DNA of 57,032 nucleotides, the filler included, from Platydemus manokwari (lineage: Eukaryota), in the NCBI GenBank assembly GCA_037951405.1. It is 5 parts of 5 records of this genome, joined end to end, with 100 filler letters (N's around TTAATTAATTAA, not from the genome) between each part and the next. Parts side by side here need not be neighbours in the genome. Positions count along the whole stretch, not along the records: positions 33,380 to 44,319 come from JBBMOY011035523.1; 4 more parts are not named here. One strand, written 5' to 3'. Shown one piece after another: positions 8,016-56,069 of this stretch (positions are counted from its first letter, which is position 1; every line of letters begins with the position of its first letter). The notes below the pieces were generated by a model. That model was given only the letters and a program-made list of their open reading frames with translations. It was not told the origin of the DNA and searched no databases. Both the position numbers and the translations under genes were made by a program.

Positions 8016-8770
8016 TTATTTCACTTTCCTATTTTTGCTATCTTTTCTCGATACTATATTTCGAATTTTTTTCATCGTTCTTTTAACAGTGATCTTGCAT
8101 TTTTTCTCCAGTAAATCAAACGACATAACACACAGTGACAAACCGAATAAAACATAAACAGAGCACATTATCGATTTATATTGCAGCTTTTCACCGCCTG
8201 TTTCTATAGGAACCAAATCTCCAAAACCAATGGTGCTCAGCGTAACGAAAGAAAAGTACAACGAATCAATAAATGACCATTCCTCATAAATTAAGAAAAA
8301 TATCGATCCGATCAGATTATAAAACATGAAAACAATTATCACCAATGATACGGGAACTTCAATCGATTTCGATTCCTTAGCAGCTTCTAATAATTTATTG
8401 GGATTCGGTATTCTGAGAAGAAATTTCCGAAATCGTATGATATGACTAACAGTGTTAGTTTCGGAATAAACTTTCGATTTGTTCATGACAGTCACGGAAA
8501 AATCTTTATCATTAATCCCACTATTATCATTATCGATTGTGTCATTAGCATCGGTTGGTTTTGTATCCATTGACGAGTTTTTTAATTTTTGAGCTTTTTT
8601 GTGTTTCTTCATGGCTTTTAAGCACGACAAACGATAAAACAATCGAAAAATGTTAGCCATTAGAGATCCTATCTGAGTGAGATAAATGAACGTAAGAGGT
8701 ATACCAAAAAATGCATAAATAATCGTTCCGATTCGTCCAGTGATTGTTTTTGGAGTTATATGTCCATATC
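8016..8770 (-). CDS. Two-pore-domain (K2P/TWK, KCNK-like) potassium channel, large terminal exon; upstream exons not found
   Basis: Acceptor ttttacag| followed by GYGHITPKTITGRIGTIIYAFFGIPL (P1 end + M2), then M3, WSFIDSLYFSFVTLSTIGFGD (P2), M4, and a stop at 8016. Confidence 0.92.
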
Positions 8771-11700
8771 CTGTAAAACAAACAATTATAAAATAAGGTA
8801 TATCTGAGAGACAGTATCGTCTTCTCCACTTTTATATTCATTTTATGCTGTGATAAAGCACATCTATCTTAATTGCTGAGATAATCTGGTCATGGAGAAA
8901 ACCATGTATAAATCGATTATAGGATATAAAATAAATATTATCATCCATTTTCTTTTTAGATCAGAAAAACAAATTTCGCCACGGTGATGAGTTTTATTAT
9001 TGCTACAAAACTATATCCTGTTTTTTAGATCTTAGCCTGGTAATGATGAAATACGGGATGGTTGCAGAACGATAAGATTGAACTAAAGTAAAGCACGCAG
9101 TGAACATATTCATGCCTATGAAAACCGACTATGACTCACAAAAATTGAACTATAAAAACCAGAATTTCTGACTTTGATTTTCAAAAGAGAAATTTTTATG
9201 TTTTGAAATAAATCTTTGCATCTTAATATTGATTCGAAATTATGTTCCGTATCAAAAATAAGTTCAACTTAATATTTTATATTATAACTTGATAGATTAT
9301 TGTTTTGTTTGCCGAAATGAATAATATATTCTCCAAATTTTAATATCTACTATGACTTTTTTTCATAGATTTCGACTTAAAAGCTTATCATAACATTTCA
9401 AGAAATGAATCTATTCAGAAATCACCGGTGTATTTTGTAATTCACATTAAAATCTAAGACCATAAATAACAGAACTGGCGAAGTGTGGCTCACTCAACCA
9501 GAGGGTAAGATTCACGATACGGGTGAACCGTACAATGAATAAAAGCTATTAAAAATGGTAGGAGCAAAATGAAGAGAGTTTTATTTAATATCGAATCTTT
9601 CGACACGATATGAAGATAAAGATCAATGCTGATATACCTAATCTGTTGCTAAATCGGCTGTACGATTTCCAATTATGATAGATAGGATTGATTGATGGAT
9701 CGAAGTATTGATTACTAAAAGAATCAATTCGATATTGAAATCACTGTTTATTAGAACCATATTGAATCAAGTTCGAAAAATAATCATAGAAACAAAACAA
9801 AATATATTCAAACAAAATATAGCGCACAAAAACTTAAATATGTAATATTTTAATCCATAAAATGTCATCACATTGTATCTAAATATCCCATTAATTTTCT
9901 AAGTACAAACTGAGGTTTATTTTAATTGGTGTGCTTTATTTTACTTCTCGATTTGAATTCTTAAAATATAAATTTATAATAAAATACAGAGCTTCCACCT
10001 TTATAATGAATTTATAACATTTCGCCTTTAAGATAAATTCCAATAATCGGAATTTTTGTGTAATGGCTTTCAGAATGATTGATTTAGTGAAACACTATGC
10101 TTTATACAGAATTTTCGTTACAAAATCAAATTTTTTATATGCTAAAAAGCATCGAAATCTCAAAAAAATAATTAAAAAATAAGCAAAAACTTATTCTTCA
10201 GTTAACAATGAGAAGTTGTGTTCTTCATTCTTTTGTCACCACAGAAGGCAGTTATAGTATCTCATCTGACGTTGTTTCTGATCTTATGATATTTGCCTTT
10301 AATGTATATCTTGAGCTTTTTTGTATAAACAGAGTTTTTAATCCATAGTATTTTAAGGATTTTAAGAGAGGTTGAATTATGTAAGGACAAGTTCATAAAA
10401 ATACAATTCCGTCAATAATTGCAACCAATGTAATCAATTTATTCGAATAAATGATGTCTATAAACATTAAGTATCTAATTACACCAAAACAGCCTATTAA
10501 CTATGTGATTTGTTGATGATTCTTTTTTTCTTTCCTACTTTTATAGAACATTGCAGTAGGTATCTTGACTTGACTTATGATACAACATTCATATTCTTGA
10601 ATATCATTTAAGGGGTTTATGATAAAATGTTTATTGATCATCACAAGCACTACTCAGCATTATATCGGCTTTAGTTGACAATATATCATGCTTACTGCGG
10701 AATTTATAACCACATGTTTGTGTGTTGTCTGTGTGCACTTTGTATTTGATGCTTTGGTTTTCAAGGTTTCAACAGAAGCTATGGATTTATGTCAACTGAG
10801 ATAAGTAATTATAAAACGATGTAATTTTATTCAAATTATTTTATAAATTTTTGAAAGTTAAAGGTACTAAATATTGTTGGATGAATAATTTGAAAGATAA
10901 AAACATTTTAGTCAAGGTCGTTATTATTTCCATAAAGCCAAAATGTAAGTATTAGAAATTTTATTTATTTCAGATATTTTATTTTATGGTTTCAAATCTG
11001 TCTTTTTTTAGGCAATTATTGGATTTATTATTTTAATACTGTCTTGTTTCAGTTATTTATTTTAATAAAATTAATTCGGTTAGAAAAAAAGAACAATTTA
11101 ACTAATATCTGGTAGATAATTTTTAAATAATGTTGTAAATAATAATTCTTCCTTGTTTCAAATAATTGAAAGAATACTCATCACTTCGCTGAAATGACAT
11201 GCTTTAGATGAACTTCTTTTGAAGTATTGTAAACAGCGTAAGAAATTTAATTTTAATAATTGTTCTTCTCATTTGTAAATATCAGAATTTAAATAATTTG
11301 TGTAAATAATAAACTCAGAATTATGTGATAAGGAAAATTTTAATTAGGAGAATTTTTTCCATTATTAATAGACAAGGTCATATTAAGAATTTGTCTAAAA
11401 TTTATAACTCAATTGAAAGGATTGGTAATAAGGATAGAAAAAGTTATACAATGATTTGATTTTACCACAAATTCAGATAGATAAGAATGAGAATGAATCT
11501 ATTTGGTCAATTTGAGGTTCTATATAATTTCTAGTGAGAGGTAAAAACTTCTAAATAAGACTAGCACTAGTCTTTCGAGAATTGTTAAAATGAAGTTTTT
11601 GGATGTTTATGTTTGCTATGGTAGTGGTTCCTGGGTATCAAGAAATCTAAAAATATGAAGAGGTAATGTTGTTAAATTTCCTACTAACTACAAATTCAGT

Positions 11701-13249
11701 TAATCAATTAATCTGACTCCTTTTTTTTATTAAATTCACACTGAAAAAGTAGGTTCCTATATTTTTTCCTAAGTCTTTTCCTTTAAAAAAACTTATAAGG
11801 GTTACGACCAAAATCTAATTTAAGACAAATCTGGTCAATTGGCAAATTTCAACTGTCTTCTAGAAGATCACCTGTTATATTATAGTGCATGATAAACACG
11901 AACTCCCTTTCTAAACGTGCAATACTTCTCAAACCCTACCTGCGAATATAATACAATTACTAATTAACTGCAATACCGAAATTTATTACTTCAAATTTAC
12001 CTTGAAAACTATTATCCTAGTTTATTATTAAATAAAAAAGGCCACTGATTTTCTGGTGTTTTTATCCTTATTATCGGAATAGACACAATGTGTGTACTAA
12101 TTAAATTTGTCCAGAAATACCATAAAACGATTCTTATTAAGAAATATTTATTTATTCAGTTCACAATAGTAAGAACTACCTTTTATTTATATATTTATTT
12201 TTGTTTATTATAACTTTGTTCTCAATGCACAAATCTAAACCTCACTCATCTGTCAACAACAAGTTTCTTATGTAATATATAAATTAGAGAATTAACATGA
12301 GAAAATTACTAAGTTCTTTTTTGATCAGTGATAAATGGCTTTTTGCTGATAAATGATCCAAACAGTATTGGCTAACTTTAGCACCGTTATGTAACGGGAA
12401 AACAGCAACAGTGTTTAAGAACAAGAATGCAACTTATTAATTGTAAAAATAATATTCTTAAATTTATTATTGTTTGGTTAATCTAAAAATATAAACAATA
12501 AATAAATAACAGAAAGAAAAAAATAGAAACATTAATAAAATAAAGTAATGGTAATTTATAAGTTACCATGGCAATGACTAATTATAAACAGATAAAGAGA
12601 AGAAAACACAAAATATTGTAAGGCCATTAAACCGTAAGACAGCACATAAAAACCTGAAGCAAAGTTTTTCTTACACAGGAAGAATACTGGACCAAATAAC
12701 GAACAATTTTTTTATAATTAATATACAATAATATTACTTGAAAGGAAATTATTTATTGATTGATCTGGTCAAATTTCTCAAAAAACATTTGACTTCTTTT
12801 TAAACTACTTTTCCGCTGACTTGTTTTTCCAATACAATTGGGTTACGGTAGTTACCAACACTGGTTATTTCATACCTTGAGGGCATCACGTCGTTATACA
12901 TTGTACTAATTTTACGGTTAAACCTATTTACGAATAAATTTTATTGATTTTTTAGTTATTGCTATGTTAATCATCAAATTTAACTAAAACATCCAACTCA
13001 TGCTTCCGCACTACTGAGAGTCGGATATTTTGTGGAATTTGTACATAAGTATCTCAACCTTGGCAGATAACAAATCATGATCATCATCAAATTTCTATCA
13101 ATATTGTCTGCGGATTATATTTAATTTTATTTGCTATTAATATATCAATTTAGAATAATAGATTTAAAGATGTCAAGAGTGTCATTTAATAAAACAAAAT
13201 TTTTATGATATGAAGTGATACTTGATGGACGAAAAGGACCACATTACAA

Positions 13250-13566
13250 ATAGTAAAAAGATAACTCGTTTGCATCAAAATTGTAATCTATTTCAAAATA
13301 ACACCGTTTGTTTTATAATATTTAAACAAATCTCATTTTTTTATCTAACTTCACTCTCCCGTTGTTTTCGAAATCCTTTCTAGCCATTCAATTCTTCGAG
13401 GTTTTGGCTGTCCCTGGAAATCAAGAAGAACTTGATGTGGACTTAAAAATTTCAAAGTTTTGTGTGGACCTTCATAACGATCTACGTTTTTCTTTATCTT
13501 ATGTGGTTCTTTCTTCACTAAAACTTCTTCTCCAACTGTGAAAATTCTACAACCTCTTTTCTCAGC
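13250..13566 (-). mobile_element. 3' end of a short-LTR Ty3/Gypsy element: integrase GPY/F tail, polypurine tract and ~100-bp 3' LTR
   Basis: Minus frame FTVGEEVLVKKEPHKIKKNVDRYEGPHKTLKFLSPHQVLL, then gggagag directly followed by TG. The following ~100 nt resemble 36308-36411, and the peptide matches 38200-38290. Confidence 0.75.
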
Positions 13567-14900: not shown

Positions 14901-15888
14901 TGTGACTATGGCTTTCTTCTAATTGTCATTTACCATCTAACATAGGTCTGACTATTTGGTTGCTATGATCAGATATGGTTATGTAGGCATGTAAATGTTT
15001 GAAGGCCGTAAATATATGCTTAAAAATGTAAATACGTTTTTTTGTAGACCTCGATTTCACTCAACAATTTATGTAACACAACGTCTCTACCAATATCAGA
15101 AGAGCCTGCAAGGATTTTCAGAGAAATAGATGACCTCGTTGACTAAACATTGGAAGAAATTCAAGAGGAGACAGAATTAAAAGAAACTCAAGAGGAATTC
15201 CTCGAGTCACAGGAAGAAGTCCACTATGAGGAATTAATCCCACCTGTCAGAAGATGATCAGAATTTACCGAGCATGGACGCAAAAGTCAATCAGCTAACC
15301 AAGAAAGAGTAGAAGAATCCAGACCAAGTCATCTAGCACTAGGGAGACCAAGAAAGGATCAAATGTCAAGGCATACATTAAGTACCACTATAAGTACAAA
15401 GATTAAAGCGAGAGCTTTAGAGAAATTTGTACGAAATTTGATATAACCAAAAGGAATAACGCATGTGAAATCTACACAGGCAGAGGATATGTTAGGGAAA
15501 GTGCTGAAATTGCTACATTCAAAATTTAAAAATCTATTGGATAATGAGCTATTATGAAAACTAAGGACTGGATTTGTCGGAGTAGAATTACAAATTCAAC
15601 ATATCATTTTAGACAAAACATAGGATGACAAAGAGATCATCAAAAGCACTCCTCAAAGCATAATCGGATGCTAGAAAGCTCAAATGGCTATAGCTTTCAT
15701 GATACGAATGATATATGGAGTAACTACGAAGCATACACCGAAATATCAAGAAACTCTAGGAAAACTGGCCACGTTGTTGGAAAAGATTATCGAGTCATGG
15801 ATAAACAGACATATCGGATGGGAAGGACTGATAAAAGGGAAGAGTAAACCTAAATCATCTAAGAGAAGACAAAGCACCAAACATAGAA

Positions 15889-16831
15889 TTGGGAGCACAG
15901 ATGCCTATGGTATTGTTAACTATAATCATAGTAATGAGTTTATTTAATATAAAAGAAACCACGGCTATAAGAACAGTTGATTGCGATAAACCTGAGCTCG
16001 AAAAGATGTATTCGCTAGTGAATTTAAAGGAATGTCCTGAGGCTAAATACAACAAAATTTATATAGAATGTATATCAATAAACCGACTACAGAAGGCTAA
16101 ATTAAAAAAAGGTGTAATAAATACACAAATCCTCATTGAAGAAGGAGAAATTGACGATGATGTTCTATGTACTGAACGAGAAAGATATTTTTGCCAGAAT
16201 AAAAGGAGAAGTCCTATATAGTTACAAATGCAATGGGATAATGATTTCATTGAAAACACAGTTAGAATCTACCAATGAACTATCTGTATTTAACAACATA
16301 GAAAATAGATATTTGGAGCTAATATCTCGGATACTGATAGTTGAAAATGTAAAAGTAATAACGATGCTTTGCAATAGTATGTTAGGGCCACTGTATAAAT
16401 GTAATGGAACATGTTACAAGATGCTAAGCAAAGAGCCAATAGATAAGGTAGTTAACTTAGAAAAGATAAGGTTGTAACATGAATTAGATTTCAAAACGTT
16501 AAATGATATCGCGAAAATGGGAATTTATACCGTGGAAGATATAGAAGAAGCAAGAAGAAACCTAATGCTTCCATTAAGGCAAGAAAGAGTGGTCAGATAA
16601 ATAGTAGATTTAATGTTGCAAGGAGGCGGAGAGCAGCCAAACATCGAGAACCTGCTAGCTCCAGACCACTTTAACAGAGTGTCAATGACTTTCCTTCATA
16701 GGACATGGGGAAGATTTGTAGTCATTGGAAATGTTGTATCTGCGTTTAAAGGAATTTGGTTTATAAAAGTTATAATAAAAATGGTGTTGAATCCGTGTAT
16801 TTCAACATACGTACTAATAAGAGTACATTGA
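15889..16831 (+). pseudogene. Chuvirus-like (class III fusion-type) envelope glycoprotein, internally deleted and frameshifted
   Basis: Hydrophobic signal, then RTVDC...YSLVNLKECP; later GEVLYSYKC, NELSV....RYLELISRIL, C....PLYKCNGTCY, IAKMGIYTVED...LMLP, and a TM region TWGRFVVIGNVVSAFKGIWFI. This motif order matches chuviral/retroelement-captured glycoproteins as I recall them. Confidence 0.75.
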
Positions 16832-17237: not shown

Positions 17238-17455
17238 TTTTCTATTAAAGTAAAAGTTAATGACTACATGATGTAAGCATTAATAGTTTCAGAAGCAGAT
17301 GTGTTAATCATCTCTTATAAAATTTTAACTAGGAAGCATTAAAGCCACTTACGGTACTAGTTTTGTCTAGAACAGTTACAGGAGAGTAAATCTCATTTGA
17401 AGGAAAAATCTTATGCAAAGCGCTAATTGGTGAATATAGGTTCACTCATGAATTT
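17238..17455 (+). pseudogene. Retropepsin-type aspartic protease remnant
   Basis: FSIKVKVNDYMM*ALIVSEADVLIIS (decayed ALIDSGADVSII), followed after a frameshift by RTVTGE*ISFEGKILCKALIGEYRFTHEF. Confidence 0.7.
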
Positions 17456-17469
17456 TCTTTCTTTTAGTT

Positions 17470-18960
17470 TCTCTTTTACGTCATTGCTCATCCAAGTTCT
17501 CTTCATTCTCAGAATCTGCAAATTCGACGGCTGAGATGCTATCTTTCTAATCCGATTCGGTGCTCTGCTTTGAGTAGAAAGTGTCTTTCCTTGATGCACA
17601 TATATATTATCTTTTCAGTTGTAACTCATTTGAAACCTGGTTTGCGTAGTAAGATTTCATTTGGAGATTTCCATTTCCCCAGATTTCCAATCACATAGGT
17701 ATGTGATTCCAACGTTGGCTTTCTTCACCTGGTTCCGCAGATCTTCGTATTTTTGTAAGTTGCCTTCATCCACGTTGTTCAACTAAATAGACACAGCTCG
17801 TCCTATTAATAAGTAATTGCCACTAAATTGGCAAGATTTTTATATGTATGTCATTTTCAGTGAAGTTATTGATGTATTTGGTCAAAATTTTCAATATTCG
17901 CATATGACGGTTGAGGATATATAAATGTGACATATTAAAATTAGTGTAAACATGGGTCTGGGATTTCAGCTCATACAAGCATTTTTGGAACTGTTGAACT
18001 ACCATGAACTTCATGTTTTGAGTGACAAGTGTGTCAAGCCAAGCTCGGTGTACAAAGGTAAACTCTGCTATTGAAAGTTGTACACAATCTTTTTTCATGT
18101 TGAAGTTATTTCCGGCCATATTTTTGGATATCTGTCACATCGAATTTGCTTGGCCAAGTGAAGTTGATAACTTCTGTTGAAGCATTGTCGGAGTAGATTT
18201 AGGAGTTTTTTCAGGTTATTTTAGCTCAGTGATGCTTCTTTTGTTATACCTCCTTCATCTCTGCAAATGCATTGGTAGATTTCGACACCAGTGTCTCCAT
18301 CGTTGATTTAGAATTTGACTGTGGTGAGCATTTAGACTTGTTCATATCAGATAAACCCAGAAATTTTATCCCGTTGCAAGTGCTTCTTTTTTCTGGTCTT
18401 TGGGTGGCATTTTAGCCAGTTTAATGATTTCACAAAGTTTTGATCACATCCTTGGGACTCCTTTGCAATTTCCTTGATAATTTTCTGTTTACTACTTTAT
18501 ATTACTAGCACATTTGATACTGTTACTATCCATAGCCAGCGTTTGATTTTATCTAGTATAAGAAGTACGTCGAGCAAAAGTTTGGTGCACCGATCATCTT
18601 TTTCAATATTTTCCTCAATTTTGTGTCCAAACTTTTCAGCTTGGTATATGTAACATAGTAAGTTCTGTCGAAAAAGATCACTTTGCTATGAACAAACATA
18701 CCACATTCATGAAGTATTTGCCATCGCAATAGACTACATTCAGTGAGTTTTTCTGATAAGGGTTTTAATTCTCGAGATTCTCGATTGAGTTATACAGATT
18801 TCAGCAAAGTTAACACTTAAATTTCTAAAATATTCTTTTCATTGAATTATCGGTATTTTCTAGCCATTGATTTGAAGGCTTTTGACTGATTGTTCCAATT
18901 TCATTTTCCACATGTGGCCGCACTTGTTTGGTTCGAATTTTATGGTCAATTAGTTCACAA
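17470..18960 (-). mobile_element. 3' part of an R2-group (NeSL/Utopia-like) non-LTR retrotransposon with restriction-like endonuclease, decayed
   Basis: Minus strand order: thumb IKFEPNKC; SLLRWQIL (cf. SLLxPWQKL); LKSLDTKLRKILKKMIGAP; AEFTFVHRAWLDTL (cf. RFIHRARLN.LP); decayed CCHC knuckle QKC..E.QTHV....NRH; RLE motifs QKYEDL and VIGNLGKW...NEILLRKPG. Confidence 0.75.
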
Positions 18961-18999
18961 TTGGCAGAGACTGGTTCATTAACATTTGAAATTCTTCGC

Positions 19000-20350
19000 T
19001 AATATTATGAATAATTGCTATAACATCGACATAAGCCGGTGATTTGATTGATTAAGAAAGATTCTAAGTTGAAAACGATGTTCAGTACTAAAACTAGGCA
19101 TTTCTGTTTTAAGAGACTACTTTTACATAATGTAACGCGCCCTTTTCAGAGGCTAATGAATGTAATTCTCAAGGTTTTGTTTTACAAAGGTCCTCTTGTT
19201 TATCTGGATGTTATTTTAGTGTATAGAAGAACAGTCGAAGAACACAATGGGAAACACGACAAGGTATTTATGTTGATTATATCAACAGGTTTGAAAATCA
19301 ATCTTAAAAATTTTCTTTTGAATCAAAAAATTATTTTATTCATAGGGTTAGTGTTGAAGGTAAATAAAACTAATAAAGACAAAGTAAAGAAGATTAAAAA
19401 ACAATAAAACACAGTTGTGTAACCCAGTTGATGTCGTTTCTTTGACTATGTAATTATTATCACTGGCGATTTAGCAAAGACTACGCATAAAATTATGTTC
19501 CATTAGTTGGAATGATGACCAATAATGACAAGTAATTATAATGGACTACGGAGTGTGAGGATTGATTTGTAAACTTAAAGGAACAAATATGCACAGCTCA
19601 GATTTTGGCCTTTCCGGATACAATTTAAAAGATGATTATAAATAACGTCACTAATTTCAAAGCAATTAGCCAATTAGATGGCACTAGAACAGAGAGAGTT
19701 GTTGTCTATAGTTCAAGAATTCTTAACAGTTATGAAAAGTTATTGCGTCAAGAGGAAGAAACTTTTAGCAACCATTGAGTTCATTATGTATTTAAATTTT
19801 TGACACCCACTGATAAGAAGGCATTAACATATATGAAGAAAACTAATAAACCAATTAGCTCTAAGTTTCAAACAAGGATTGCGAACTTAACTGGTTTAAA
19901 TATCAGAAGTTATCAGATCATGGAAATGCGGATGGATTCTCAAGGATAGGCGAAGCAGTTTTCACAGTGCTTATTTCAGCATAAAAGTGCTAAAGTAGGC
20001 AAACCATAAAATTGGTTTATTAATGTTTCAATTAGAGCATTCAATTAAAATTAATGACGAACTGAAGAAGATTCAACAAAAAGATACTGTCGTTTGTTCT
20101 ATTTGAAAATAGTTACAGAAAACGGAAACATAGGTCAATTCGTCGGTCAAGAACAGCAAATGTTTTAACGGTTTAGAGAAATACGATAATGATAATAGAA
20201 AGAAGCGAATTGTTATGCCAGAAGTTCATAAGAAGTTGTACCATATTGGTATTAAGAATATGGTCGATTACATTGAAGAGATTTACTTCTGACCAAACAT
20301 GTCACGAAACATTGATACAAAGTTTGAAATTGTGATATTTATCCTGAACT
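19000..20350 (+). mobile_element. Ty3/Gypsy pol fragment (RT-RNase H-integrase zinc finger) of the short-LTR family, decayed
   Basis: KTMFSTKTRHFCFKR...FQRLMNVILK...LVYLDVILVY...GLKINLK (RT); TDKKALTYMKK and DHGNADGFSR (RNase H end). Nucleotide similarity to 37270-37830. Confidence 0.85.
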
Positions 20351-33450: not shown

Positions 33451-33823
33451 TAATTACAGGCATTTAAATAATATCCTGAGAGAATATAAATAATCTATCA
33501 ATTATATTATTAAGATATTTTCATAATATTATATTTTATAATTGATTTTACATTGTAAAATTCTCGAAATATAAAACAACAACAAACTTTCATTTTATTG
33601 AAACATTAATCTTATAATTAAATGATTAGAAGTTAATAAACACGGAAGTAATAATAATATTATAAATTGTCATTTTATATATTTCATTTACAATATCATA
33701 AGTGAACTACTCTTCCCAATATTGTTTAATATTTATCAAACACAAACACCTTGAATAAATATTGTTATCAAAGTTAAGTTAACAATAAAAAGCAGCTTTG
33801 TAGTTAATTTTATCGACAAATAA

Positions 33824-35133
33824 TTATTCTGTATATTCTGGATAGTCGTCCAAATACTCCAATGTTTTTTCGTGACGTATCGATTCATCCACAGTAATAT
33901 CATTTAAAGGACATCCATTTTTATAAAATTGTTTAAATTGGGCTTTAAATCTATCTGTTAAACATTAAACTAATAATTGATTAATAATGAAAATATAAGA
34001 ACCAGAATGCTGTTTCAAAGGACCTCCTCGTCCACCATATTCGATTGGTAAGAGATCTTTCAATCCAGGAATATTTTCGAATGCTACATTCATATCATCA
34101 TTTCGAATAATCTGAAATTAATAACTCATTTAGTAATAAAAACCAATCAGTAATTAAATCAATGATGATAGTAAACAATCGATAAAATATAATATATTTA
34201 ACTAAAATTATAATTATCTGTGTACGCACTTTGCCATCAAATTGTTTATTCAGATGAAAACAGTACATTTTGAACGCATCATCATAAATGGCAGATGCAT
34301 TGTAAAATAAATGAACTTTCATTCGCCAAGGAAAAATATCCGAAAATTGATATTATTAAATTACTTAACCAAATAATCATTGAGAAAGTTACTTGAAAGC
34401 ACCTTGCCACTTCTATCAAATATTTACTACCAGTCCATATATCCGCTATTTTGGCGAGGCATCTGTCATATCATAGAATAATCTTACTCCATGGATTTCA
34501 GTCTCTTCTTCAGAAAGTATAACGTCATATCCCATGTAATACAAAGCAGTAACTTGAATATTGGTAAACCTATCAGGATTCCAGAATTCTAAAAAAAGTG
34601 AAAAGCTTTGAACTTGTTGCAATGAACAAAATGAGAACTCTTTCACCATCATAATCTATATTATTACAATTATATATTATCATAATGAAACATTATTACT
34701 TAATGGGGAGAAAATAATTAATTCTCCATCTTTATTTCTTCCCAATAGTGTAAACAGTCTACATATTTCACGATTTTTATAAGTATTTGAATAATTATTA
34801 GTCTACTGTAAGTCTAGAAATTCATTAATCATCGCGTCATCAATTTTGGCATAATGGAAATAATGTGCAGTTCCTCTATGGGAACCTCTCACTGTACATA
34901 AAGAATCCAATTGTTTTTTAGCTGTTTTCAAATCGAATTTCGCTACTCTTAGAAATCGTAGTAAGAATTTAGAATCTATTCAAATCAATTATAATGTAAT
35001 GATGAATATTATTTTATTATCATACCTGTCGGACAATTTGCTCGTGAATTTTGTCTGGATCTCCATTCAAATTATCAATAGCAAATTGTTTCGATGATTT
35101 GCTAATTTTATCATAATCATATTTATCAGTCAT
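33824..35133 (-). pseudogene. CRAL-TRIO (alpha-TTP/clavesin/RLBP1-like) gene, disabled tandem duplicate
   Basis: Exon-by-exon paralog of 40349-41723. It has a 43-nt deletion in exon 1 (~35038), a 1-nt deletion near 34445 giving DASPK*, and an AG>CG acceptor change at ~34341. Confidence 0.8.
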
Positions 35134-35597
35134 TATCACTGTGTCGGTTTTATAAAATCAGAAACTTATTCTCAAAATAAATCAATCTAATGTTTTATAA
35201 AAATAAAATAACACACACAAGTATTGAAAGTTAAAAGCTGAAATAGATTTAGCGGTACTGTCATTGATGAGTGATTCTTCTTTACGGTGTTAAACCAATG
35301 TAATTAACAAGTGGTCAAATTTTACAATTTCATGAAAATGTGTAAATCAATATTATCGACATTTTTAAGTGAAAACATTTTTGTAAAATCCAACACTTGA
35401 TGGAAGCAGATTTTTGCAAACAACTCTTCATTTCCATTAATATTTGATAAATATATTTTAGTATTCAGAGTGAACCTATATTAATTATTGATAATAATTA
35501 GGAATATATGCCAGTACTTTAATGTTATGCTGAATAAAACACATATTTTAAAAATCTAGCAAATTAGAAAACTGATAAAACTAGAATATAACAGATC

Positions 35598-36307: not shown

Positions 36308-38300
36308 TGTAATATAGTTACATAAAGACTAAATTTGTTTAAATATTCGAAAAGAACGCGTGTGATTTTTAAAACAATACATTTCAATGGAAACCAGTGA
36401 TATATTTTTATTGGCGACTACGACGAAATAAAAGTTCTTACGAGAGCCAAACGAGAAATGAAGCAGAATCTGTTACACAAAAACCAGGAATTTTTTATTC
36501 CAAAGCCATTGTAATTTTATGCATCAATTCAAGACGCTGAAAAGTGGTTCCAGACAACCATGGGTTTCGCCACTATCATCTGCATTTGACATGCTATTGA
36601 GAGATGTCGCCAAACAACTATGGCAAGAATTCATCAGATTCAAAGAAGCTGTTTCAAATGAAGAAATTGAGAAATGGTTTTTGAAAATTTTTTCACATAC
36701 CAAAACTGTATACTACAAGGTTCAAGATTTGGCGGCAATGCAACAAAGACCGGATGAAAAATACCGCAGTTTTGAACTTCAGCTAAAGAAGCTGGCTTCG
36801 GAGGTGTTTAACAAGAAAAAAATTCTTCCAAAAAATTTCAAGACTATTTATTCTGCACGGCCTAAATAGCAAGAAATTGAAAAAGTCTTTTACTCTCGAC
36901 TCTGCAATGACCGATGATATGAGAAAATAGTCGGCTGTCAATTTTAAGAGTTTACTCCGACGAAGCCCATAAACGTCATCAAGAAGACATATGCTCAGCC
37001 ATTATTTTAAAGTAACCAAAGGAAAACCTTTCAAAAGGAAAATTCGTTCAAAAAACCAAACCCAATTCTGCTGGGAAGAGATTGCTGTAAAGGAATATCA
37101 TCGTGCTCCAGCTAATTACATTGAATCTTTAAACAATACTAGACCAACAACATAAATGAAGGCTATTGAGCCTAGGTTTTAACACCGATTGTAGAAGAAA
37201 AACCACACCACGTGGTGATTATTTTAAGCATGGAGCTTACTTTTACTGTGATGAGCTCTGACGCCGGAAGTTTTGTACCTCGAACTAATCACAAAGCATT
37301 GACAAACATGAGAAAACTGACAAACCAATTAGCTTCAGATTTCAAAAATGGTTTTTTAAACTTATATGGATTCAATTTTGAACATCAATATCGAAAGAAA
37401 ACAGATCATGGAAATACAGATGAACTTTCAAGAATAATCGAAGCATTGTGTTCACTCAACATCAAGGTCCTAAAAAGGCAAGCCAAAAGGTTTGTTTATT
37501 AATGTTGTCAAGAATTGAATTGCAAATAATTAGTAACTAAGCATGATTCAACAAGAAGATACTTTCATTAGTTCCATTCGAAAGTGGTTACAAAAAACGA
37601 AAGCAGAAGTCAATTCCTCGATAAGAAAAATTTAATATTTTAACAGTTTAGAGAAATATGAATTGTTTGAAGATACTGTAATGTATACTGAGAATGGAAC
37701 GAAGCAAATTGCTGTACCAGAGGTTCATTCGCAGAACCTAACGAGATACCTTTATGAAGAGTTGTGTCGATTACATTAAAAAGATTTACTTCTGCCCGAA
37801 GTACGAAATTGTCATGTTTGTGATAAAATGAATGGAGGTGAAAGAATTAGAATAAAGTTTTAGAATAAAGCAAGAATTTACCTCTCCATACCAACACCGG
37901 ACAAATGGCTTAGCCGTAAGGATGATTAGGACAATCCGAGACATGAAGGGAAGAGAACTGGTACCATAAAAACAGGATTGGAATAAATACATCGGATGGA
38001 ATTTATTGTCAATGCAACACATCAAAGCTCAATTCGATATTTCTCTTGTTTGGATGACGATTTAATTTGCATGGGTTACGATTAAATGAACCAAGTCACC
38101 ACCACTAGATCATCAAAGAAACTAAAAACCTTCTAAAACCACTAGTCACAAACTTAAGAAAATTTGATGATAAAAATGTTGTTGTAGAATTATTGTTGTT
38201 GGAGAAGACGTTTTAGTGAAGAAAGAATCACACAAAATAAAAAACAACGGATATCTTTATGAAGGTTTTCACAGAATTTTGAAATTTTTAATAATAGATA
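36308..38300 (+). mobile_element. Short-LTR Ty3/Gypsy element, internally deleted: 5' LTR, PBS, gag, RNase H end, integrase
   Basis: TGT...LTR 36308-36411, PBS at 36412, gag-like LAAMQQRPDEKYRSFELQLKKLASEVF, RTNHKALT...DHGNTDELSR, integrase TSPYQHRTNGLAVRMIRTIRDM, and GEDVLVKKE...YEGFHRILKF. Confidence 0.85.
36412..36425 (+). promoter_or_regulatory. Retroelement primer-binding site (TGGCGACTACGACG), possibly tRNA-Ser-type
   Basis: TGG (complement of tRNA CCA) immediately after the inferred LTR and just before gag; resembles the TGGCGACGAG tRNA-Ser(GCU) PBS. Confidence 0.6.
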
Positions 38301-38329: not shown

Positions 38330-40140
38330 ACTAATTGGAATAATAGCTTCAATATATATTTTCAGAGAACTAGTAGAGATCAGTAAGACTCTACTGCAAG
38401 AATTCAGTATATTTGTAGCACGATTTGGATTAAGTCTCATGACATCCGAAGAGAACTTATACATATAATGATAAATATTGTAGGATATCTTAATGATATA
38501 AGTAAAGCTCATTATTTCACAAAAGCAGCAAAAATAGGAAGAAAAGATAAAGTGACTTGGTGGATGAATATATAAAAATGTTGACATATGAAGGTCAAGA
38601 ATTAGATGACGACATATATCCGATTGACATATGATGCAGTCATATGAAGTAAGCAAGATTACTGTATTTTATCTGGATAGTTAAGGACAAATGATGCCAA
38701 CCACCTGACTCACTGCACCACTAAAATAATTTACCAAAACTTCAACAAAGAGAGGTACAACGTAGCCTACTTAGTAATGGAACACCTTTACCAATAGCAG
38801 AAGAACCTACAAAAGTAACAAGAGAAATAGAAAACCCAAATCATGTTATATTGAAAGATATCCAGAAGGATAGGGAATCAGAAAAAATCCAGATCCAAGA
38901 AGATACCTAACTAAAAGAAACTCAAGTGGAAATCTTCGAGTCACAAACGGAAGTCGATTATGAACAATTGGTTCCATCTACCAAGAAAATATAAGAAAAT
39001 AAGCAGAAGTTACATAGCTAGAAAGTAGAATTGAACCAGCTGTCCAAGCGAAGGTTGAACCGATACTTCTTATGGGAAGGACTGATTAAAGAAAAGAGTA
39101 AACCAAAATAATGCAAGACAAGAGAAACACCAAATATAGAATTTGGCCCAAAAATGGCCTTGATATTGTTAATAGGAAACATTGTAATGAGTTTATTTAA
39201 TAAAACAAGAACCACGGCCATAGAAGCTTTTGATTGGGATAAATTGCAGCTTGGGAAAATATATTTATTATCGAATTTAGAAGAATGTCCAGAAGCTCAA
39301 TCAATGAAAATAAATATAGCAAATTATATATACCACGTGTATAAAGAAAGAGGTGGCAGAAGGGTAAGACAATGAAGATTGAAAAGAGCTAAGTTCGAAT
39401 ACTAATTAGGATCTAAATTAGGAACTAACAGGAGCATCTGCTACCTTTCAAAGAAGGACGACCATTGTTTTAATGGAAATATTTCATGCCATGGTATATA
39501 GACGATACAATTATTTTCTCAGGAATTTAGTAGAAAACATAGTGAATGTCTTAAAAGATCAAGATGTGCAGGCTTTAAAAATAAAACCAAACAAATGCGA
39601 TTGAGCTAGACCATAAGTGATATACGTAGGACATGCTATCTTTACATGTGGAATTAAATCCAACCCAAATAATGTGAAAAAGGTACAAAAGCTTCTAATA
39701 TCAAAATCTATTAAAGGGATCAGAGAGTTTTTATGACTAGTCGGATATTACCGACGATTTATTAAAAATTTCAGAAGGATAGAAGCCCCAATATATGATC
39801 TGCTACAATGAGTAAAATAAAAAACAAAAAGTGTTTAAAAGAAGAAATTAAATAAAATGATATCCGATAAAGAAATAGGAAAGGTTTAAATAATGCAAAC
39901 GTTCAAATGGGAACAGAAGCAGCAACAAGCGCTTGAAATGCTAAGAGTGTTTAACAACAGTTATAATGGCCAGAATGTGCAAACCATTTTACTCATTACC
40001 GATACTAGTCGGGTTGCAATAGGAACAGTACTAGAACAACAGAGGAACGGAGGAAAACATGTTATAGCATATGCCAGCATAGAGTCAAAAATGCATGAAA
40101 AGAAGCGATGTCGAAAATGCCGTAGCCGTTAAATAGGTTA
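38330..40140 (+). mobile_element. Decayed envelope-bearing Ty3/Gypsy element, copy 2: unknown domain - glycoprotein N-terminus - (deletion) - RT - RNase H
   Basis: LPIAEEP..REI..LKETQVEIFESQTEVDYEQLVP and WEGLIKEKSKPK match copy 1. Signal + IEAFDW...YLLSNLEECPEA at 39154-39410. Then LTGASATFQR..AMVY/IDDTIIFS, LKIKPNKC, LVGYYRRFIKNF..IEAPIYDLL, and ITDTSRVAIGTVLEQ...VIAYAS. Confidence 0.85.
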
Positions 40141-40348
40141 AAAAGAAAAGACAGCTAGAAAATGAAAAATAAAAAAATTAGTAATAATAATATTATTAAT
40201 AATTTTATAAAAACATAATATGTTAAGTCAATTACTGGTCCCAATAATCGTTTATATTTAAATATCACAATCACCCAGAATAAATATTGTTATCAATGTT
40301 AAGTTAATAATGGAAATCAGCTTTTTAGTTAATTTTATCGACAAATAA

Positions 40349-41723
40349 TTATTCGGTATATTCTGGATAATCTTCTAAATAATCCAATGTTTCTTCATGA
40401 CGAATCGATTCATCCACAGTAATATCCTTCAGAAGACTTCCGTCTTTAAAATGGGCTTTGAATTCTTCTTTAAATCTTTCTGTAAATTACTGAGTAAATC
40501 ACTGATTGAAAATGTAGATATAAATAACCAGAATGATGTTTCAAAGGACTTCCACGTCCACCATATTCGATAGGTAAGAGATCTTTCAATCCAGGAATAT
40601 TTTTGAATGCTACGTCCATATCATTAGTTCGAATAATCTGAAATTCATAATTCATAAAGTAATAATAAACCAATCACCAATCAAAACCATGATAATAGTA
40701 AAATATTAATAAAATATTATATCTAGCTAATTTTAAAAATCTGTTCAACAAAATATAAACTATTTACGCACTTTGCCATCAAATTGTTTCTTCAAATGAA
40801 AACTCCACATTTTGAACGCATCATCAAAAATTGCAGGCACATTGTAAAATACATGAACTTTCATTCGCCAAGGGAAAATATCCTAAAATTGATTTCATTA
40901 AATATCTAAATCAAAAATCATTCAGAACGTTACTTGATGGCACCTTGCTACTTCCATTAAATATTTATTGTCAGTCCATGCTTTCGCTACTTTCGGCGAG
41001 GCATCTGTCATATCATAGAATAATCTTACTCCATGGATTTGAGTCTCTTCTTCAGACTGAATAACTTCAAATCCCATAAAGTACAACGCAGTAACTTGAA
41101 TTTTAGAAATCGTATCAGGATTCCAGTATTCTAAAGAGGAAATGTGAAAAAAATTGAACTGGTTGCGATAAACAAAATAGGAACTCTTTCACCATCACAA
41201 TTCATATCATTACAATTATATATTATCATCATAAAACATTATTACTTAATGGGGAAAAAATAATTAATTCTCCGTCGCTATTTCTTCCCAATGGTGTAAA
41301 CAGTCTAAATATTTCACGATTTTTATAAGTATTTGAATTACTATGAAGTCTACTGTAAGTTCAGAAATTCATTAATCATCGCGTCATCGATTTTGGCATA
41401 ATCGAAAAAATGAGGACTTCCCCTATGAGAACTTCTCACTGTACAAAAAGAATCCAAGTGTTTTTGAGCTGCTTTCAAATCAAATTTCGCTGTTCTTAGA
41501 AATCGAAGTAAGAATTTAGAATCTATTCAAATCAATTATAATATAATGATGAATATTATTTTATTATCATACCTGTCGGACAATTGAAATGTGGCATTGC
41601 TATCGCCCATTTTCTCAGTTGGTCAATTTGTTCGTGGATTTTGTCTGGATCTTCATTCAAATCATTAATAGCAAATTGTTTCGATGATTTGCTAATTTTA
41701 TCATAATCATATTTATCAGTCAT
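40349..41723 (-). CDS. CRAL-TRIO domain lipid-binding protein (alpha-TTP/clavesin/RLBP1-like), ~7 exons, apparently intact
   Basis: LNEDPDKIHEQIDQLRKW...DSKFLLRFLRTAKFD (CRAL-TRIO N), EETQIHGVRLFYDMT, YFPWRMKVHVFY, DLLPIEYGG. GT-AG introns preserve the frame. Confidence 0.9.
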
Positions 41724-42877
41724 TATCACTGTGTCGGTTTTAAAAATTCAGAAATTTATTCTCAAAATCGAATCAATCTAATATTTTATAAACAAAAAAT
41801 AACACACAGTATTGAAAGTCATTAGCTGAAATACATTTTAACGGCCCTGTGATTGCTGAGTGGTTAATGTTTAGGGCGCTAAGCCAGTGTAATTAACAAG
41901 TGGTCAAATTTTACATTTTTATGTAAATGTACAAATCAATAATATCGATATTCTTAAGTGAAAACATTTTTGTAAAATCCAGCACTTTAAAGAATCACAT
42001 ATTTGGAAAAAACTGTTCACTCCAATTAAATAATATTTGATAAATATAAACTTCATTTATCAGAAAATATATTTTATCATTGGTCAGCAATATTTTATTT
42101 ATTTTCTACACGTTATAAAAATTGATAATCTTTTTTAGATTACACATTTTTAAATTGATTCTTCAGTAAATATTTATCAGTGAAACCAACAATTCAAATG
42201 TTTCATTTTTAGTCTCACTCAAAATAGTGTTCAAAAAAGTGTAAATGCAGAATTGAAAAAATTGAAATTATAAAATAACAGTTCTTAAAAATTTAATAAA
42301 ATCGTCAACACATAAGTCTCGAAAATTGTAAATTCAAATAAATCACAAAAAACAAAAGTTCCAAAAGTAAAATATCAGAAAACAAGAGCTCAAAACTCGA
42401 ACGATTAAAACAACGACAAAAATCAATAACTTTTAATTGCCGCTGAGAATCGACTTCTTTTATAAACTTATCTTTTGTGATGATTTGTTATCATACAGTT
42501 TTCATTTCATTTATTATAACCCCCTGAAGACCAGCCTTCTATCTTTATATAACATTATCGTATCTCGATGTTCATTGACTGTGGTTAATGTGCGCCATAT
42601 TCTCATATATGTTGCCCTAGTAATTGATTTTGATTTTCCGATTGTTGTCAGTACAGTAGTTTTATATTAGGTGGTTACTGATCATTATTGAGTGAATGAG
42701 AGTGCTAATGTATTTTGTGAAATACATAAGACTAGAAAGTATATAAGGGAGCTTAGATCATGAGAATAATTTTAATTATTTCCTAGAATCTAGATCTGTA
42801 GTTTGATGAGTAGATGATTTATGATTTTGATTTGTTTTTAAACAGAGCTGAAGAAGTTAAGTATTTTATATTTTGAG

Positions 42878-50665: not shown

Positions 50666-51784
50666 TTAGAATTGACGTGTAAATTATGTTGATCAAAATA
50701 ACAGTAGTAGTAATACAAAGTAAAACAAACAGCATAAATCAATTTTGTAATATTTTCTATAATTATGATCGATGAAAATTTATAGTATATGTGTATTTAT
50801 TGTAATTATACAAGAATGGATTGTTAAACTTATTAAATTAATTTTAAATAAAAATTTTATATTTCCTATTAAATATTATATAAGTAACTTAATTTTGAAA
50901 ACTTAATTTTGAAAAATTAATTTTAAAAAGTAAAAATTTTGCAGTAAATAAAATAATTTATATAAATGAAAATCAATAAATGTATATATTACGTATTTTG
51001 ATTATAATAAAAATAGCTTTTGATTGTTCATTTTGACTTAATTTATTTGCTTATTCAACTCAAATGCGTAATTCAGAAGTTTATAAATGAAAATTAATGA
51101 AGAAATATAAATATTAACTTTATCCACCAGAGTTACAACTACGGCAATGAAAATGTATAACTCACAAGAATGATTGTCTTTTCATGTGGATTTATATGAT
51201 TAATTACTTTGCTATTTATTTGTTGATCATTAAAAATATTTTAAACCTTTAAAAAACTTCAAACTTCAAAATTTGAAAACAAGACTTTTTTCAGATGCAC
51301 ATACGAAAATTTAAAATCACGGAAATCTAATTTAAATCATCAATAATAGCTATAACGATATAATAAATAATAGATATAAGTTATAACGATATAATAAATC
51401 CATAAATATTATATTAACTCAAGCAACATAATTTAAAGAAATTATTATTATCAAGATCGGAATCAATCATCTATTACATCCATGTCTTATGCTTATAGAA
51501 TTAGCAATTTAAATCGGAGATTAATTAATATCTCGGTTTATAATTCTATCAAAAGATTTAATGGAATTTAATAAGGAAATTGTATTGATTTTCTACAATT
51601 TATCGTGAACATAATATGATAAAGTAACTTCACCAAAACAAATACACCCAATCATACACAAACACACACACACATTCACTGTCTCACTGTATTCGTCCCT
51701 GTATTCATCCATCCTGCATAATATTAATAACAATTTATTGATTTTACCAGCAACTAAATGAGAAAATTTAAATAATGTTTTCAC

Positions 51785-54700
51785 CTTTGTGATTTGAGCC
51801 GAATGACCAAGATATTCCTGCCACTCACCGGGTTTAGTAAGTGGAAACTTGAATGATCGAACTGACCCATTATTGGTTCCACAGAATAACATTCGACCAG
51901 AATTAGACAATGTTACTGTCGTCAATTGCACATCAGGACTATCGACTTCTCTGAGAACTTGGGAGTCGGATATTTCCTTCAACGTTTTATCAGTTCCGAC
52001 AGCATAGGTGCTTTTACCATCTTGAGTGACACTGATTCCCGTGTAGCTGCATGCTTTGAGCACACTCTCACCGCATCTCTTGCCTGGAATAATTTATGTA
52101 TTAATCCACGTCATGGATAAACCGAATATACCTGTATTTGTGTCCCATTCGTAAACGGCCCCATCCATTCCACAAGATATGAGTTTCTTATCATCAGTTG
52201 TCCATACGACATTTCGAATTTTCCCATTATGACCCTTCAAACTCATGACAACCTCGAAACTCGTCGTTGAATAAATCTGGATTAGATTGCTGTGCACTGC
52301 TGCGAAATAGTGACCACCGTAGCTGAACGCGCACTGAAATGAAAAATCAATAAATGGGTTTTTTTATCGATCATGTTATCAAACCTCTTTACAACCGCGA
52401 ATTGAGAACTCCTTAAAAGTGCGAATATCATCAATCAAGATGTTCATCAAACGGAGTTTATCACTGAATCCCACGAGAATGTAAAGACCCGATGGGTGCA
52501 AAGCGATGCTGTAAGCTTCTTCAGCAAATTCTTTATATAACTCCAATTGGCTGAAAAGTAATTTTTTATTACGATAAATTCTTCATTCACTCACTTAGTC
52601 TCATAGTTCCAAATACGAACCGATCTATCCACAGCACAAGTCGCAATAATTGGTTTCCTTCTACAGAGATCAAGCCCAAGTATTTGAGAATAATGAAACG
52701 AATAAGATAACAGATCGAAATTCGAATGATCGCCAATTTTAGCTAATTCTGGAGAGGAAATTGTGAAGGAAAAAAGTTGATGGATATCAGTACACGCTAC
52801 AATCGTTTCTTCAGACGGACTGATGCACATATCTGTAATTATTTGTGCTTGCGATTTAGCTGGATCAGCACTGTTGGAGTCGATGGGAATGTGTATCTCT
52901 CGAATTTTACGATAATATTCCTTTTCATCAGTCTTCTCAAACCAATGAACTTTACCAAGTCCACAGGCCGCAGCAAAACCTTTATTACTCGAGACAATCG
53001 TGGTAATTTGCGTGTTGAGAGTGGTATTGTGACTACCTTCAGGTCTGAATGAAATATTTCAGTAGGTAATATTATTGGATTGGATATCACTACAAAAATA
53101 ATATTCTTCAGCATAGACTCACTTTGGTTGATCTTCAAAAGTAAGAGTAGCACCAAGGTTGTGCTCGACTTTGATCTCTCCATTTTCTACGAGAATCCAT
53201 TTGCCGGTATCTGTTCCAAGAATGATTCGTTCATCCGATACCCAAGTGTGACACAAGAAATTCTGTGATTCCACTTTTAATATGCCGAAATTTTTTAAAT
53301 TGTTTTCCGAATAGCGAAACATTTTGAAAAAGTTGTTGCCAATTGCACAGATTTGCGTGCTATCTTGTGGATTGAATGAAATCTAGATGATCATGACGAT
53401 TAAAAATAATTCAGGTACTAATTAGCTGTACTTTAACATATGTACTTTTGTTGTACTTTTGAATATATCAAGTTAAAGAATTTTCAATACAATAAGTTGT
53501 CATTTATTCTTCTCATAAACCATGGTAATTTTTAGTAAACAAAATTATTTCGATCGGAGGAATTGGTATATTGTAAATAATATTATAAAATCATGAATAG
53601 CAATATGAAAAACATTGGAATAAATTTATTAATCGAGTAAAAAATTAAAGACAGAAAGATTTCACTAACATCTATGTTTTGTCGAGCGAAATAATTTATA
53701 CATTAGAATCATCTTAACACGATTTCTGAGCCAGAGTGGCTATCAAACTGAACCAATGCGCGCGTGCACACACACACACACATATATATCTTTTTTTTAA
53801 TACATCCATTACATTTTATGTGATCTCTCTATTAGTTTTTTTCATCTCAATTTGTCGTGTTGGGATTTTACACTGCTACATTTTTGTAAAGATATTTTAA
53901 AATATTATTGTTTTAACTATTATTTATCATTACTTGATTATTAAGAACAAATTGTCGTCATATCAACAAAGAAACAATTAATGGACAATGATAAAAACCA
54001 AATATTATACAGAGAGATATTTCCAAATAGTTTATCAGCATTAGCAAACATCACTAATATTCCAATTATATCAATCAATGTTAGCTAGAACTGAATATTA
54101 TTAAGAGAAAAATGATCCTTGTTAGTGATATCAAGGAAAATTTTATAAACTAACATAGAACATAAAAGTATTATATTTAATGATTACAGAAAATATATTC
54201 AATACCGCACTATTGTTTACAATCATAATAATATCATACAACTATAATTGAGAGTTACTAGAAATTGTCGTTTGGAATACTAACAAATTATACACCTAAT
54301 GAACGTGCAATCATCATTGATTAATATAGTAAAAATATCATTCACGATACTATAAAAATCATTCACAATACCGCAAATATTTTTCATAGTACCATGTATA
54401 TCATTAATAATACCAAAAATATAATTAACAATGCCAAAAAGTTATTCAAAATAATATAAATATCATTCCCAATACTATAAATATCATTAACAATACCATA
54501 AATATCATTCATAATAATATAAATATCAAGCAAAATACCATAAATAAAGATCATTCATAAGACTATAAATATAATTTACAATCCCATGAATATCATTAGC
54601 ACAACCACAGATATCATTCAAAATACTTTAAATATCATTCGCAATACCACAAATTTTATTCACAATGATATAAATATCATTCGCAATAATATAAATATCA

Positions 54701-56069
54701 TCATAATACTATAAATATAATTTACACTGTCATGAATATCATTCACAATACCACAGATATCATTCATAATAATATAAATATCATTAACAATACCAAAAAT
54801 ATCATTCACAATAATATAAATATCATTCACAATGCCATGGATATTGTGAGGTTTATTCAAAAATACCAGAAATAATTAAAATTTACGTATGATCAAAATT
54901 AGTAAAAATTGAGTCAAAAGATATTTTAAAAAATTATGTTAAAAATAAATCAACGATATTAATATTTATAAAAGGATCTTGCTAAACAATACTGTTAAAC
55001 TCTCAGTATTAAAATTATTAAAATAAAATTTTAATTTTTGTTAAAAAAAGATATGATATAAAAATGTGTTAATTTTATATTTTGATCAAAAATCAAGATA
55101 AATCTGATGGAACAAATTTTAAAATTTGTTTAAAATGTGATGTCATAAATCATATATTTGTTCTGTTATAAAAAACATGACTACTGATTTAAATTTCGAG
55201 AATGAAGAAATTTTGGCAACAAACAAATATCTTTGACAACTGCGCATTTATCAATCATGATATATTAAATGAGCAATTATGATTCATCACTTGATCGATA
55301 ACTAATACGAGAACAATATTGAATGAAATCAATAAATTATTATATATTAAAATTATCGAGAATTTTGGAAATATTTAAATTCTATTCTATGAATATTTAT
55401 ATCGTAGATCTTATTTGTTATCATTTAATATCGACGATCTAGTTAACGATAAACCATTGGTTCAGATATTCGATATCAAGCGCGGAAATGATAAATCAAT
55501 ATAAAATGTTCAACAGGTTGTCATTTCATTTTTAATCAAAGATTATTTCAGAAATAACTATATAAATAATTGATTTTTTATTATTGCCTTACTTGGTTGA
55601 CAGAAAAAGTCGATGCTGGAGATGTTAATTTGGTCGATGCCAACTGTTTGCTCTTTTCCCAAGCCCAATAAATGAGAATCCAGTCCGGATTTGATGTTTG
55701 TCCAGCTAAATATTTGGAATCCGGTGAGAAAGCAATGCAACAAAACTCATTTGACTGAACTTCAGGTGCTGAAAGAGTTTTCTTTTTTCTCATGGAATTT
55801 AAATCATAAATGACAATCACGGGTTTATCTTCTGCTGTCGTTTCGGCAAGAGCAACATATCTTCGATTTGGACTAATTGCCATTGCTGTCATTTTACGAG
55901 ACTTCTCCAGACCCGAAATAAACTTTTGGGATCTTTGGTCAATATTATACATAACCAAATTGGAACCACAGGGATAAACCAATGTTTGTTCATTTTGATA
56001 TGCAATGGCCCCGTTTACACCAACTCTAAAGCCAAAAACGTGTTTCAAATGTGCAGCAGCTATAGACAT
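51785..56069 (-). CDS. CFAP57: Cilia- and flagella-associated protein 57 (WDR65), first six exons only (approx. 56069-55593, 53382-53123, 53044-52595, 52551-52385, 52333-52132, 52084-51785)
   Basis: [44 protein letters not shown]; ISFNPQD; [24 protein letters not shown]; [27 protein letters not shown]; LKGHNGKIR; [11 protein letters not shown]. The last exon ends in a GT donor. Confidence 0.93.
54330..54845. repeat. 21-bp minisatellite (atatcattcacaataccataa-like), about two dozen degenerate copies, in CFAP57 intron 1
   Basis: atatcatt recurs with ~21-nt period. Confidence 0.9.

Follow-up and report, generated by a model that had tools for sequence, protein, structure and literature searches.

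Background

The closest described system is Burro (GYPSM1), a giant Ty3/gypsy element of planarians (Grohme 2018 and Jurka 2007, as cited in PMC6431247). It has a 4,873-aa ORF with gag, SUMO-like, BCL2, env, PR, RT, RH and IN (Arkhipova and Yushenova 2019, PMC6431247). Its env matches the fusion glycoproteins of mononegaviruses and is, according to the same paper, the first env that lies in frame between gag and pol. Decayed Burro fragments with stops and frameshifts are noted there for one planarian. The account of Burro in section 7 of that paper does not mention a signal peptide or processing. A Burro element is reported to aid the survival of planarian stem cells through a different domain, IAP (as cited in PMC13465017).

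GAG-ENV-POL errantiviruses with an env of the HSV/gB type have been described from the Platyhelminthes, Nematoda and Bryozoa (Chary and Hayashi 2026, PMC13524379). Supplement 1 of that paper has 9 flatworm elements, 6 of them from Schmidtea mediterranea. Expression is left unaddressed there, since the words 'polyprotein', 'splic', 'frameshift', 'single ORF' and 'Burro' do not occur in the main text.

The window considered here is the whole stretch of 57,032 nucleotides, filler included, from Platydemus manokwari (GCA_037951405.1). What its copies have in common with Burro is a BCL2-like domain just before a mononegavirus-type env, followed by PR-RT-RH-IN (PMC6431247). The window has fragments only, whereas Burro is over 25-30 kb long and has LTRs; the copies are likened to it by its published description. 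A profile search of the window found no gag, LTR or accessory domains. The layout of one ORF with an in-frame env is already published for Burro, and the window copies are a new, dead Burro-like element. We think it quite probable that the junction upstream of their glycoprotein is that of two decayed Burro-like Ty3/gypsy copies whose relatives have Bcl-2-like-G-PR-RT-RH-IN in one frame, and that the hydrophobic segment at this junction is likely an internal signal peptide, likely cut by signal peptidase.

Two decayed copies

The junction of copy 2 lies in a single frame. From 39073 to 39350 this frame runs from a conserved Trp through a basic lysine-rich stretch, one stop and a hydrophobic segment to the N-terminus of a Monjiviricetes-type fusion glycoprotein (G). 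The landmarks are the Trp codon at 39073, the sole in-frame stop at 39109-39111, the Met at 39154 and, in frame with the Trp codon, a hydrophobic 13-mer from 39160 with a mean Kyte-Doolittle value of 2.53. We take BH2 to be the name for the Trp-containing region of the Bcl-2-like domain in the copies. Copy 2 and the relic upstream of it consist of the following.

37284..38011, plus strand: RNase H-integrase relic of the same family, separate, upstream of copy 2 (67% identity to 19809-20297; integrase profile at 37841-38011, iE 8.6e-6)
38786..38969, plus strand: acidic segment upstream of the deleted Bcl-2-like domain (76-78% identity to copy 1 at 15085-15130 and 15159-15235)
39073..39108, plus strand: last helix of the Bcl-2-like domain, with the BH2-like Trp, and basic segment (ungapped alignment to copy 1 at 15819-15854, where the Bcl-2-like profile match ends)
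39109..39111, plus strand: in-frame linker stop, likely a decay lesion (an alignment to the relative P0161 spans it; stop density is at background)
39112..39153, plus strand: linker of 14 codons from the basic segment to the signal-like segment (compared with copy 1)
39154..39219, plus strand: signal-like hydrophobic segment (hydropathy; same place as the one that precedes the conserved start motif of G in relatives)
39220..39350, plus strand: mature fusion glycoprotein, first 45 codons or so, then truncated (tblastn with the G N-termini of relatives)
39413..40105, plus strand: RT (YIDD) and RNase H remnant, joined straight to the G start (profiles of relatives; Pfam RT_RNaseH)

The tblastn matches to the G N-termini of relatives cover 39085-39348 with E between 1e-3 and 1e-6. 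By the small-residue rule for signal peptide cleavage sites, the cut in copy 2 is predicted to fall just before about 39220. The profiles of relatives find RT at 39413-39820 (iE 4.5e-34) and RH at 39983-40105 (iE 1.9e-7). About 0.48 kb of the Bcl-2-like region is missing from copy 2, where 38969-39051 corresponds to 15235-15797 of copy 1. What had been called the upstream ORF of copy 2 joins the Trp block only across this deletion near 39050. A third fragment (13443-13553, minus strand), which adjoins an assembly gap, is 83% identical to 38181-38291, a stretch just downstream of the integrase core match in the upstream relic.

The junction of copy 1 (15819-16060) has the Trp at 15819, the Met at 15901 and a hydrophobic 13-mer (mean Kyte-Doolittle 2.95) from 15907. 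The parts of copy 1 are these.

15402..15842, plus strand: Bcl-2-like domain, broken by stops (profile of the domains of 7 relatives; hhalign)
15843..15900, plus strand: basic segment and linker with a frame break near 15873 (alignment to copy 2)
15901..15966, plus strand: signal-like hydrophobic segment (hydropathy; PF24664 profile positions 4-69 at 15913-16110, weak, E 0.009)
15967..16825, plus strand: Monjiviricetes-type fusion glycoprotein (Pfam PF24664 at 16157-16825, profile 359-580, E 9.4e-27)
17238..17354, plus strand: aspartic protease remnant downstream of G (protease profile of relatives, weak, iE 0.0096)
19051..20313, plus strand: RT, RNase H and start of integrase (Pfam and profiles of relatives)

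The PF24664 match at 15913-16825 is placed between the Bcl-2-like domain and PR. Near 16110-16157 some 290 internal positions of the profile are missing from it, and a TM anchor is likely near 16733-16790 (hydropathy 1.79 over 19 residues). The pol domains follow in the order PR (17238, weak), RT (19051), RH (19599) and integrase zinc domain (20197, weak), which is PR-RT-RH-IN. The 1.6 kb or so between protease and RT (17400-19050) has a reversed strand skew and is unmatched by relatives or Pfam; it is probably a later insertion.

The window is rich in AT (GC mostly 22-36% per kb), and it contains assembly gaps as well as host genes split by introns. Host gene exons on the minus strand at 8016-8831 and 51593-56069 belong to a two-pore potassium channel (PF07885, E 1.3e-27) and a WD40 protein. 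A tRNA gene search of the window found none. A 1.9-kb direct repeat, 82% identical (33647-35455 and 40180-42048), flanks copy 2. We considered these repeats as LTRs and rejected that, since they hold minus-strand fragments of a protein-coding gene. These exon-like pieces make the repeats a host gene duplication; presumably the gene is one that resembles a CRAL-TRIO lipid-transfer gene.

Weight of the two lesions

The two copies are 74.9% identical over 259 nt (15818-16075 and 39072-39329, E 1.5e-41). Copy 1 is open where copy 2 stops, but it has one extra base near 15873, so its Trp block and signal block are in different frames. The preliminary description had given copy 2 a single stop in one frame and copy 1 a single inserted nucleotide near 15872, and our alignment agrees with both. 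It went on to argue that lesions which differ imply a continuous ancestral frame. This step is statistically weak because both copies are decayed and the lesions are at the background level of stops. There are 16 stops in 737 codons of the main frames in copy 1 and 7 in 240 in copy 2. At these densities the probability of at least one stop in a 27-codon linker is 0.45 for copy 1 and 0.55 for copy 2. The copy 2 stop and the copy 1 frame break are likely ordinary decay. Each copy also has its own Met two codons before the hydrophobic core, so the window alone fits a separate env ORF equally well. In the 9 codons before this Met the copies differ at codon positions 1, 2 and 3 by 3, 0 and 4 sites, which is coding-like with few sites. 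Codon-position bias between the copies was tried as a frame indicator and is too weak to fix the frame. The continuous frame itself stands, on the relatives and the literature.

The upstream domain

The preliminary description passed over what the protein upstream of the junction, its X, might be. We conclude from profiles and a predicted model that it is a Bcl-2-like domain. A profile built from the domains of 7 relatives has its only window match at 15402-15842 (iE 1.3e-8), and hhalign of a 6-sequence alignment of relatives' domains against the window gives a probability of 91% (E 1e-6). The window sequence alone has no Bcl-2 match in Pfam, so the assignment is made in two steps, through the relatives. 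When the 6-sequence alignment is searched against the PDB, chains of the Bcl-2 family fill 59 of the 60 best rows (best E 2.6e-4). Single-sequence PDB searches with a relative's domain gave designed helical repeats and ETV6 fusions at the top and one Bcl-2 homologue at E 0.75. With the domain from locus L002 as modelled by AlphaFold (pLDDT 65), Bcl-2-fold proteins take the top 33 VIA rows; the best has Z 9.0, rmsd 3.0 and 114 aligned residues, and the first unrelated row has Z 5.8. Foldseek with this model also has Bcl-2-fold proteins in all of its best rows, but with E 0.02 or worse. An Atlas search with a relative's domain was uninformative, with all scores under 0.9.

A GGW motif in this domain lies 48-53 residues before the G motif in the window, P0001, P0016 and L002, and about 80-87 residues before it in four others. 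It is absent from the Bcl-2-like position in many relatives.

Reading frame in relatives

An exhaustive homologue search with the window's G gave 211 matches, of which the best 150 were used for motif counts. A word-index search with the G half had found no match among 473 candidates. The 7 best of the 150 listed phmmer matches all have G deep inside a longer frame. The G start motif is present in 69 of these 150; it is within 60 residues of the start in 57, which are stand-alone G proteins, and deeper in 12, one of them spurious. A metagenome scan with G gave at least three loci (L001, L002 and L003) among 593 matched stretches, and scans of viral contigs and genome contigs found no loci. Together with 18 proteins these loci make up the 21 sequences examined, which were chosen as long relatives. 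They are not independent: P0005 and P0151 form one cluster, P0004 and P0157 are 82% identical, and 18 of the 21 are known as protein calls only.

The relatives are where the frame can be followed without a break. At the DNA level G, PR, RT, RNase H and integrase lie in a single ORF both in L001 (3426 codons) and in L003 (2693 codons); that of L003 runs to them from a gag-like start and zinc knuckle. P0158 (3700 aa) has zinc knuckles, G and all of pol in one protein. The full G-PR-RT-RH-IN is also found in P0006 (2627 aa), the gene of which was called in prokaryotic style on a contig of 9084 nt. P0157 has capsid, knuckle, Bcl-2 (E 0.0015), G, protease and ankyrin repeats. The domains found among the relatives include ubiquitin-like, ankyrin, zinc knuckle and gag capsid; gag with CCHC knuckles and a SUMO/ubiquitin-like domain lies upstream in P0157, P0158 and L002. 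At the junction itself, residues 940-1026 of P0161 are uninterrupted and align across the copy 2 stop in one HSP. The distance from Trp to the G start motif is 51 codons in copy 2, equal to that in the uninterrupted P0001. In run X1, which may be the source sample of the window, a contig of high depth (about 518 of 573) has a linker whose net difference in length from that of copy 1 equals the difference seen in copy 2.

At least 128 open codons or residues precede the hydrophobic core in 20 of the 21 sequences, and the 15 residues just before the core have a positive net charge in 18. Two claims of the preliminary description are borne out by this comparison: that X, signal, G, PR and RT share one frame, and that a basic segment is followed by an internal signal-like segment. 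It is the uninterrupted relatives and the literature that argue for frame continuity at the junction, not the two lesions in the window.

Several other features of these sequences were observed. P0006 is annotated as a hypothetical protein of a bacterial MAG, which is likely eukaryotic contamination of the bin. P0151 (4844 aa), P0003 and P0001 have several aspartic-protease-like domains per polyprotein, with 7 Pfam stretches in P0151, as well as ankyrin and C2H2 zinc-finger inserts. Just downstream of the L001 polyprotein, a 496-codon ORF (10617-12107) has an exonuclease domain of the RNase T type (E 1.4e-5) and is a possible accessory gene.

Expression and topology

The sequences show the homology of each part, the order of the parts in copy 1 and the single ORF of the relatives; the processing steps are our inference. 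The Gag, ubiquitin-like and Bcl-2-like domains would be synthesised in the cytosol. The hydrophobic segment would then insert with its basic N-side in the cytosol. Signal peptidase would release the N-terminus of G in the lumen, and the segment would stay on the end of the Bcl-2-like domain. The hydrophobic helix at the end of G would stop transfer, which would leave PR-RT-RH-IN in the cytosol to be excised by the element's protease, and env would have no spliced RNA of its own. The same signal-plus-anchor pattern may be repeated after integrase in many relatives.

A crude hydropathy scan of the full-length relatives found no hydrophobic segment within RT-IN in 11 of 11, a TM segment where G ends in 10 of 11, and at least two hydrophobic segments after integrase in 9 of 11. 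Extra hydrophobic segments between the G start and RT occur in 6 of the 11; one of them is a second stretch that closely follows the G anchor of P0006. The parity of membrane crossings is therefore not established. As a separate observation, at about residues 1585-1770 and 3017-3347 of its ORF, L001 has pairs of a signal-like segment and a TM segment, and the ectodomains that they enclose are unmatched in Pfam. One L001 pair lies between protease domains. Such pairs after integrase occur in 9 of 11 relatives, L003, P0002, P0006, P0049, P0151, P0154, P0158 and P0159 among them. The pairs are a possible second membrane protein in the same ORF.

Alternative explanations

One can imagine a scenario where the frame is continuous but synthesis of G begins, also or mainly, at the Met that heads the segment, on an RNA that is spliced or started internally, with the polyprotein serving for Pol only. 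The env of Drosophila gypsy is made from a spliced RNA, which is a precedent. Both window copies have the Met described above, and a Met lies within 25 residues of the core in 9 of 20 relatives. A single ORF also has no obvious way to set the ratios of Gag, Env and Pol. Against this, 11 of the 20 lack a Met in the 45 residues that precede the core (a Met inside the core is not counted), and the 120 nt before the Met contain no pyrimidine-rich acceptor in either copy. The YAG sites in those 120 nt follow purine-rich sequence, with a pyrimidine fraction of 0.25-0.40, though the copies are decayed. Pol made from the long ORF must still pass the signal and the anchor. We consider this scenario unlikely. 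A second possibility is that the signal is not cut at all. The segment would then be an uncleaved signal-anchor. G would be anchored at either end and would remain joined to the Bcl-2-like domain up to the point where the protease of the element makes a cut on the cytosolic side. Some gB-type ectodomains are indeed predicted to lie between two TM domains with no signal peptide (Chary and Hayashi, PMC13524379, section 6). In our relatives, by contrast, the segment is short, with 3-5 residues between its end and the start motif, the same motif that follows an N-terminal signal in the stand-alone G relatives (the 57 of 69 motif-bearing matches among the 150 listed). Class III fusion proteins normally have a free N-terminus, which also speaks against an anchor here, and we give this scenario very little credence.

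In the remaining scenario some lineages have a programmed stop after the Bcl-2-like domain and ahead of the signal. Low readthrough would give more of the Gag side than of Env-Pol, and the copy 2 stop would be genuine. A conserved stop before the signal is the pattern that the preliminary description set against its own reading. It has one instance, in L002, and is not common to the other 20 sequences examined. The L002 stop (3058-3060) is in frame 6 codons before the core with no Met between, and it is flanked by open frames of 999 codons (gag-ubiquitin-like-Bcl-2-like) and 402 codons (G). The chance of a lone random stop falling in this linker is about 0.02, and copy 2 has a linker stop too. 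These two stops are different codons, however, and they lie 12 codons from the Trp in copy 2 and about 21 in L002. Copy 1 reads through at the position of the copy 2 stop, and the latter is expected from decay at the density given above. A search with the L002 upstream region found, among 7999 scored candidates, no other protein that ends at this stop, only L002's own, which is weak evidence. With 1 of 21 sequences on its side, we think this scenario very improbable. We read the L002 stop as a lesion, though programmed readthrough may occur in that lineage.

The internal signal peptide with cleavage is the reading we prefer, and a more speculative extension of it can be made. The env signal peptide might have a second role: once cut, it might remain on the Bcl-2-like domain as its C-terminal tail anchor and so hold Gag and an apoptosis regulator at the membrane into which G inserts. 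The polyprotein might thread the ER several times and release G along with one or more further membrane proteins, as in positive-strand RNA viruses, with a second, undescribed glycoprotein. We put this forward tentatively and think it somewhat doubtful. Cellular Bcl-2 proteins consist of a core, a short basic linker and a hydrophobic helix. The tail-anchor role is possible because the segment follows the last Bcl-2-like helix by way of a short basic linker in the window, P0001, P0016 and L002. It cannot be general because many relatives have no GGW motif there. To our knowledge almost all enveloped retroelements have env on a separate RNA. If the extension holds, a co-translational signal and anchor route would be a distinct expression strategy, one by which the assembly of particles would be tied to the control of cell death in the host.

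Comparison with known systems

We found no paper on signal-peptidase processing of a gag-env-pol ORF in a search of mostly open-access literature; Grohme 2018, Sacco 2022 and Lee et al. 2026 (Dev Cell, Burro1) may cover processing. The intact L001, L003 and P0158 make the topology of the single gag-env-pol ORF open to direct tests.

The GAG-ENV-POL errantiviruses have the same gene order and env class as the copies and their relatives, and the env rows share motifs with the relatives as judged by eye only (PMC13524379). The glycoproteins of chuviruses and other Monjiviricetes, and of the BEL/Pao elements that bear a chuvirus G (PMC7642597), belong to the same Pfam family as the copy 1 G, PF24664. 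They differ in that G stands alone there, about 650 aa long with an N-terminal signal, and the elements are BEL/Pao rather than Ty3/gypsy in pol order.

The precedent for a signal that is left behind as an anchor is the core-E1 junction of HCV (PMC5402940). In that system the signal peptide of the following glycoprotein forms the end of a cytosolic protein, which stays anchored in the ER once the two have been cut apart. HCV and the relatives differ in several ways. The viruses are unrelated, the glycoprotein of the relatives is a class III-type G and not E1, RT and integrase follow the anchor, and cleavage in the relatives is a prediction. An arrangement comparable to the HCV junction is found in the structural polyproteins of flaviviruses and alphaviruses.
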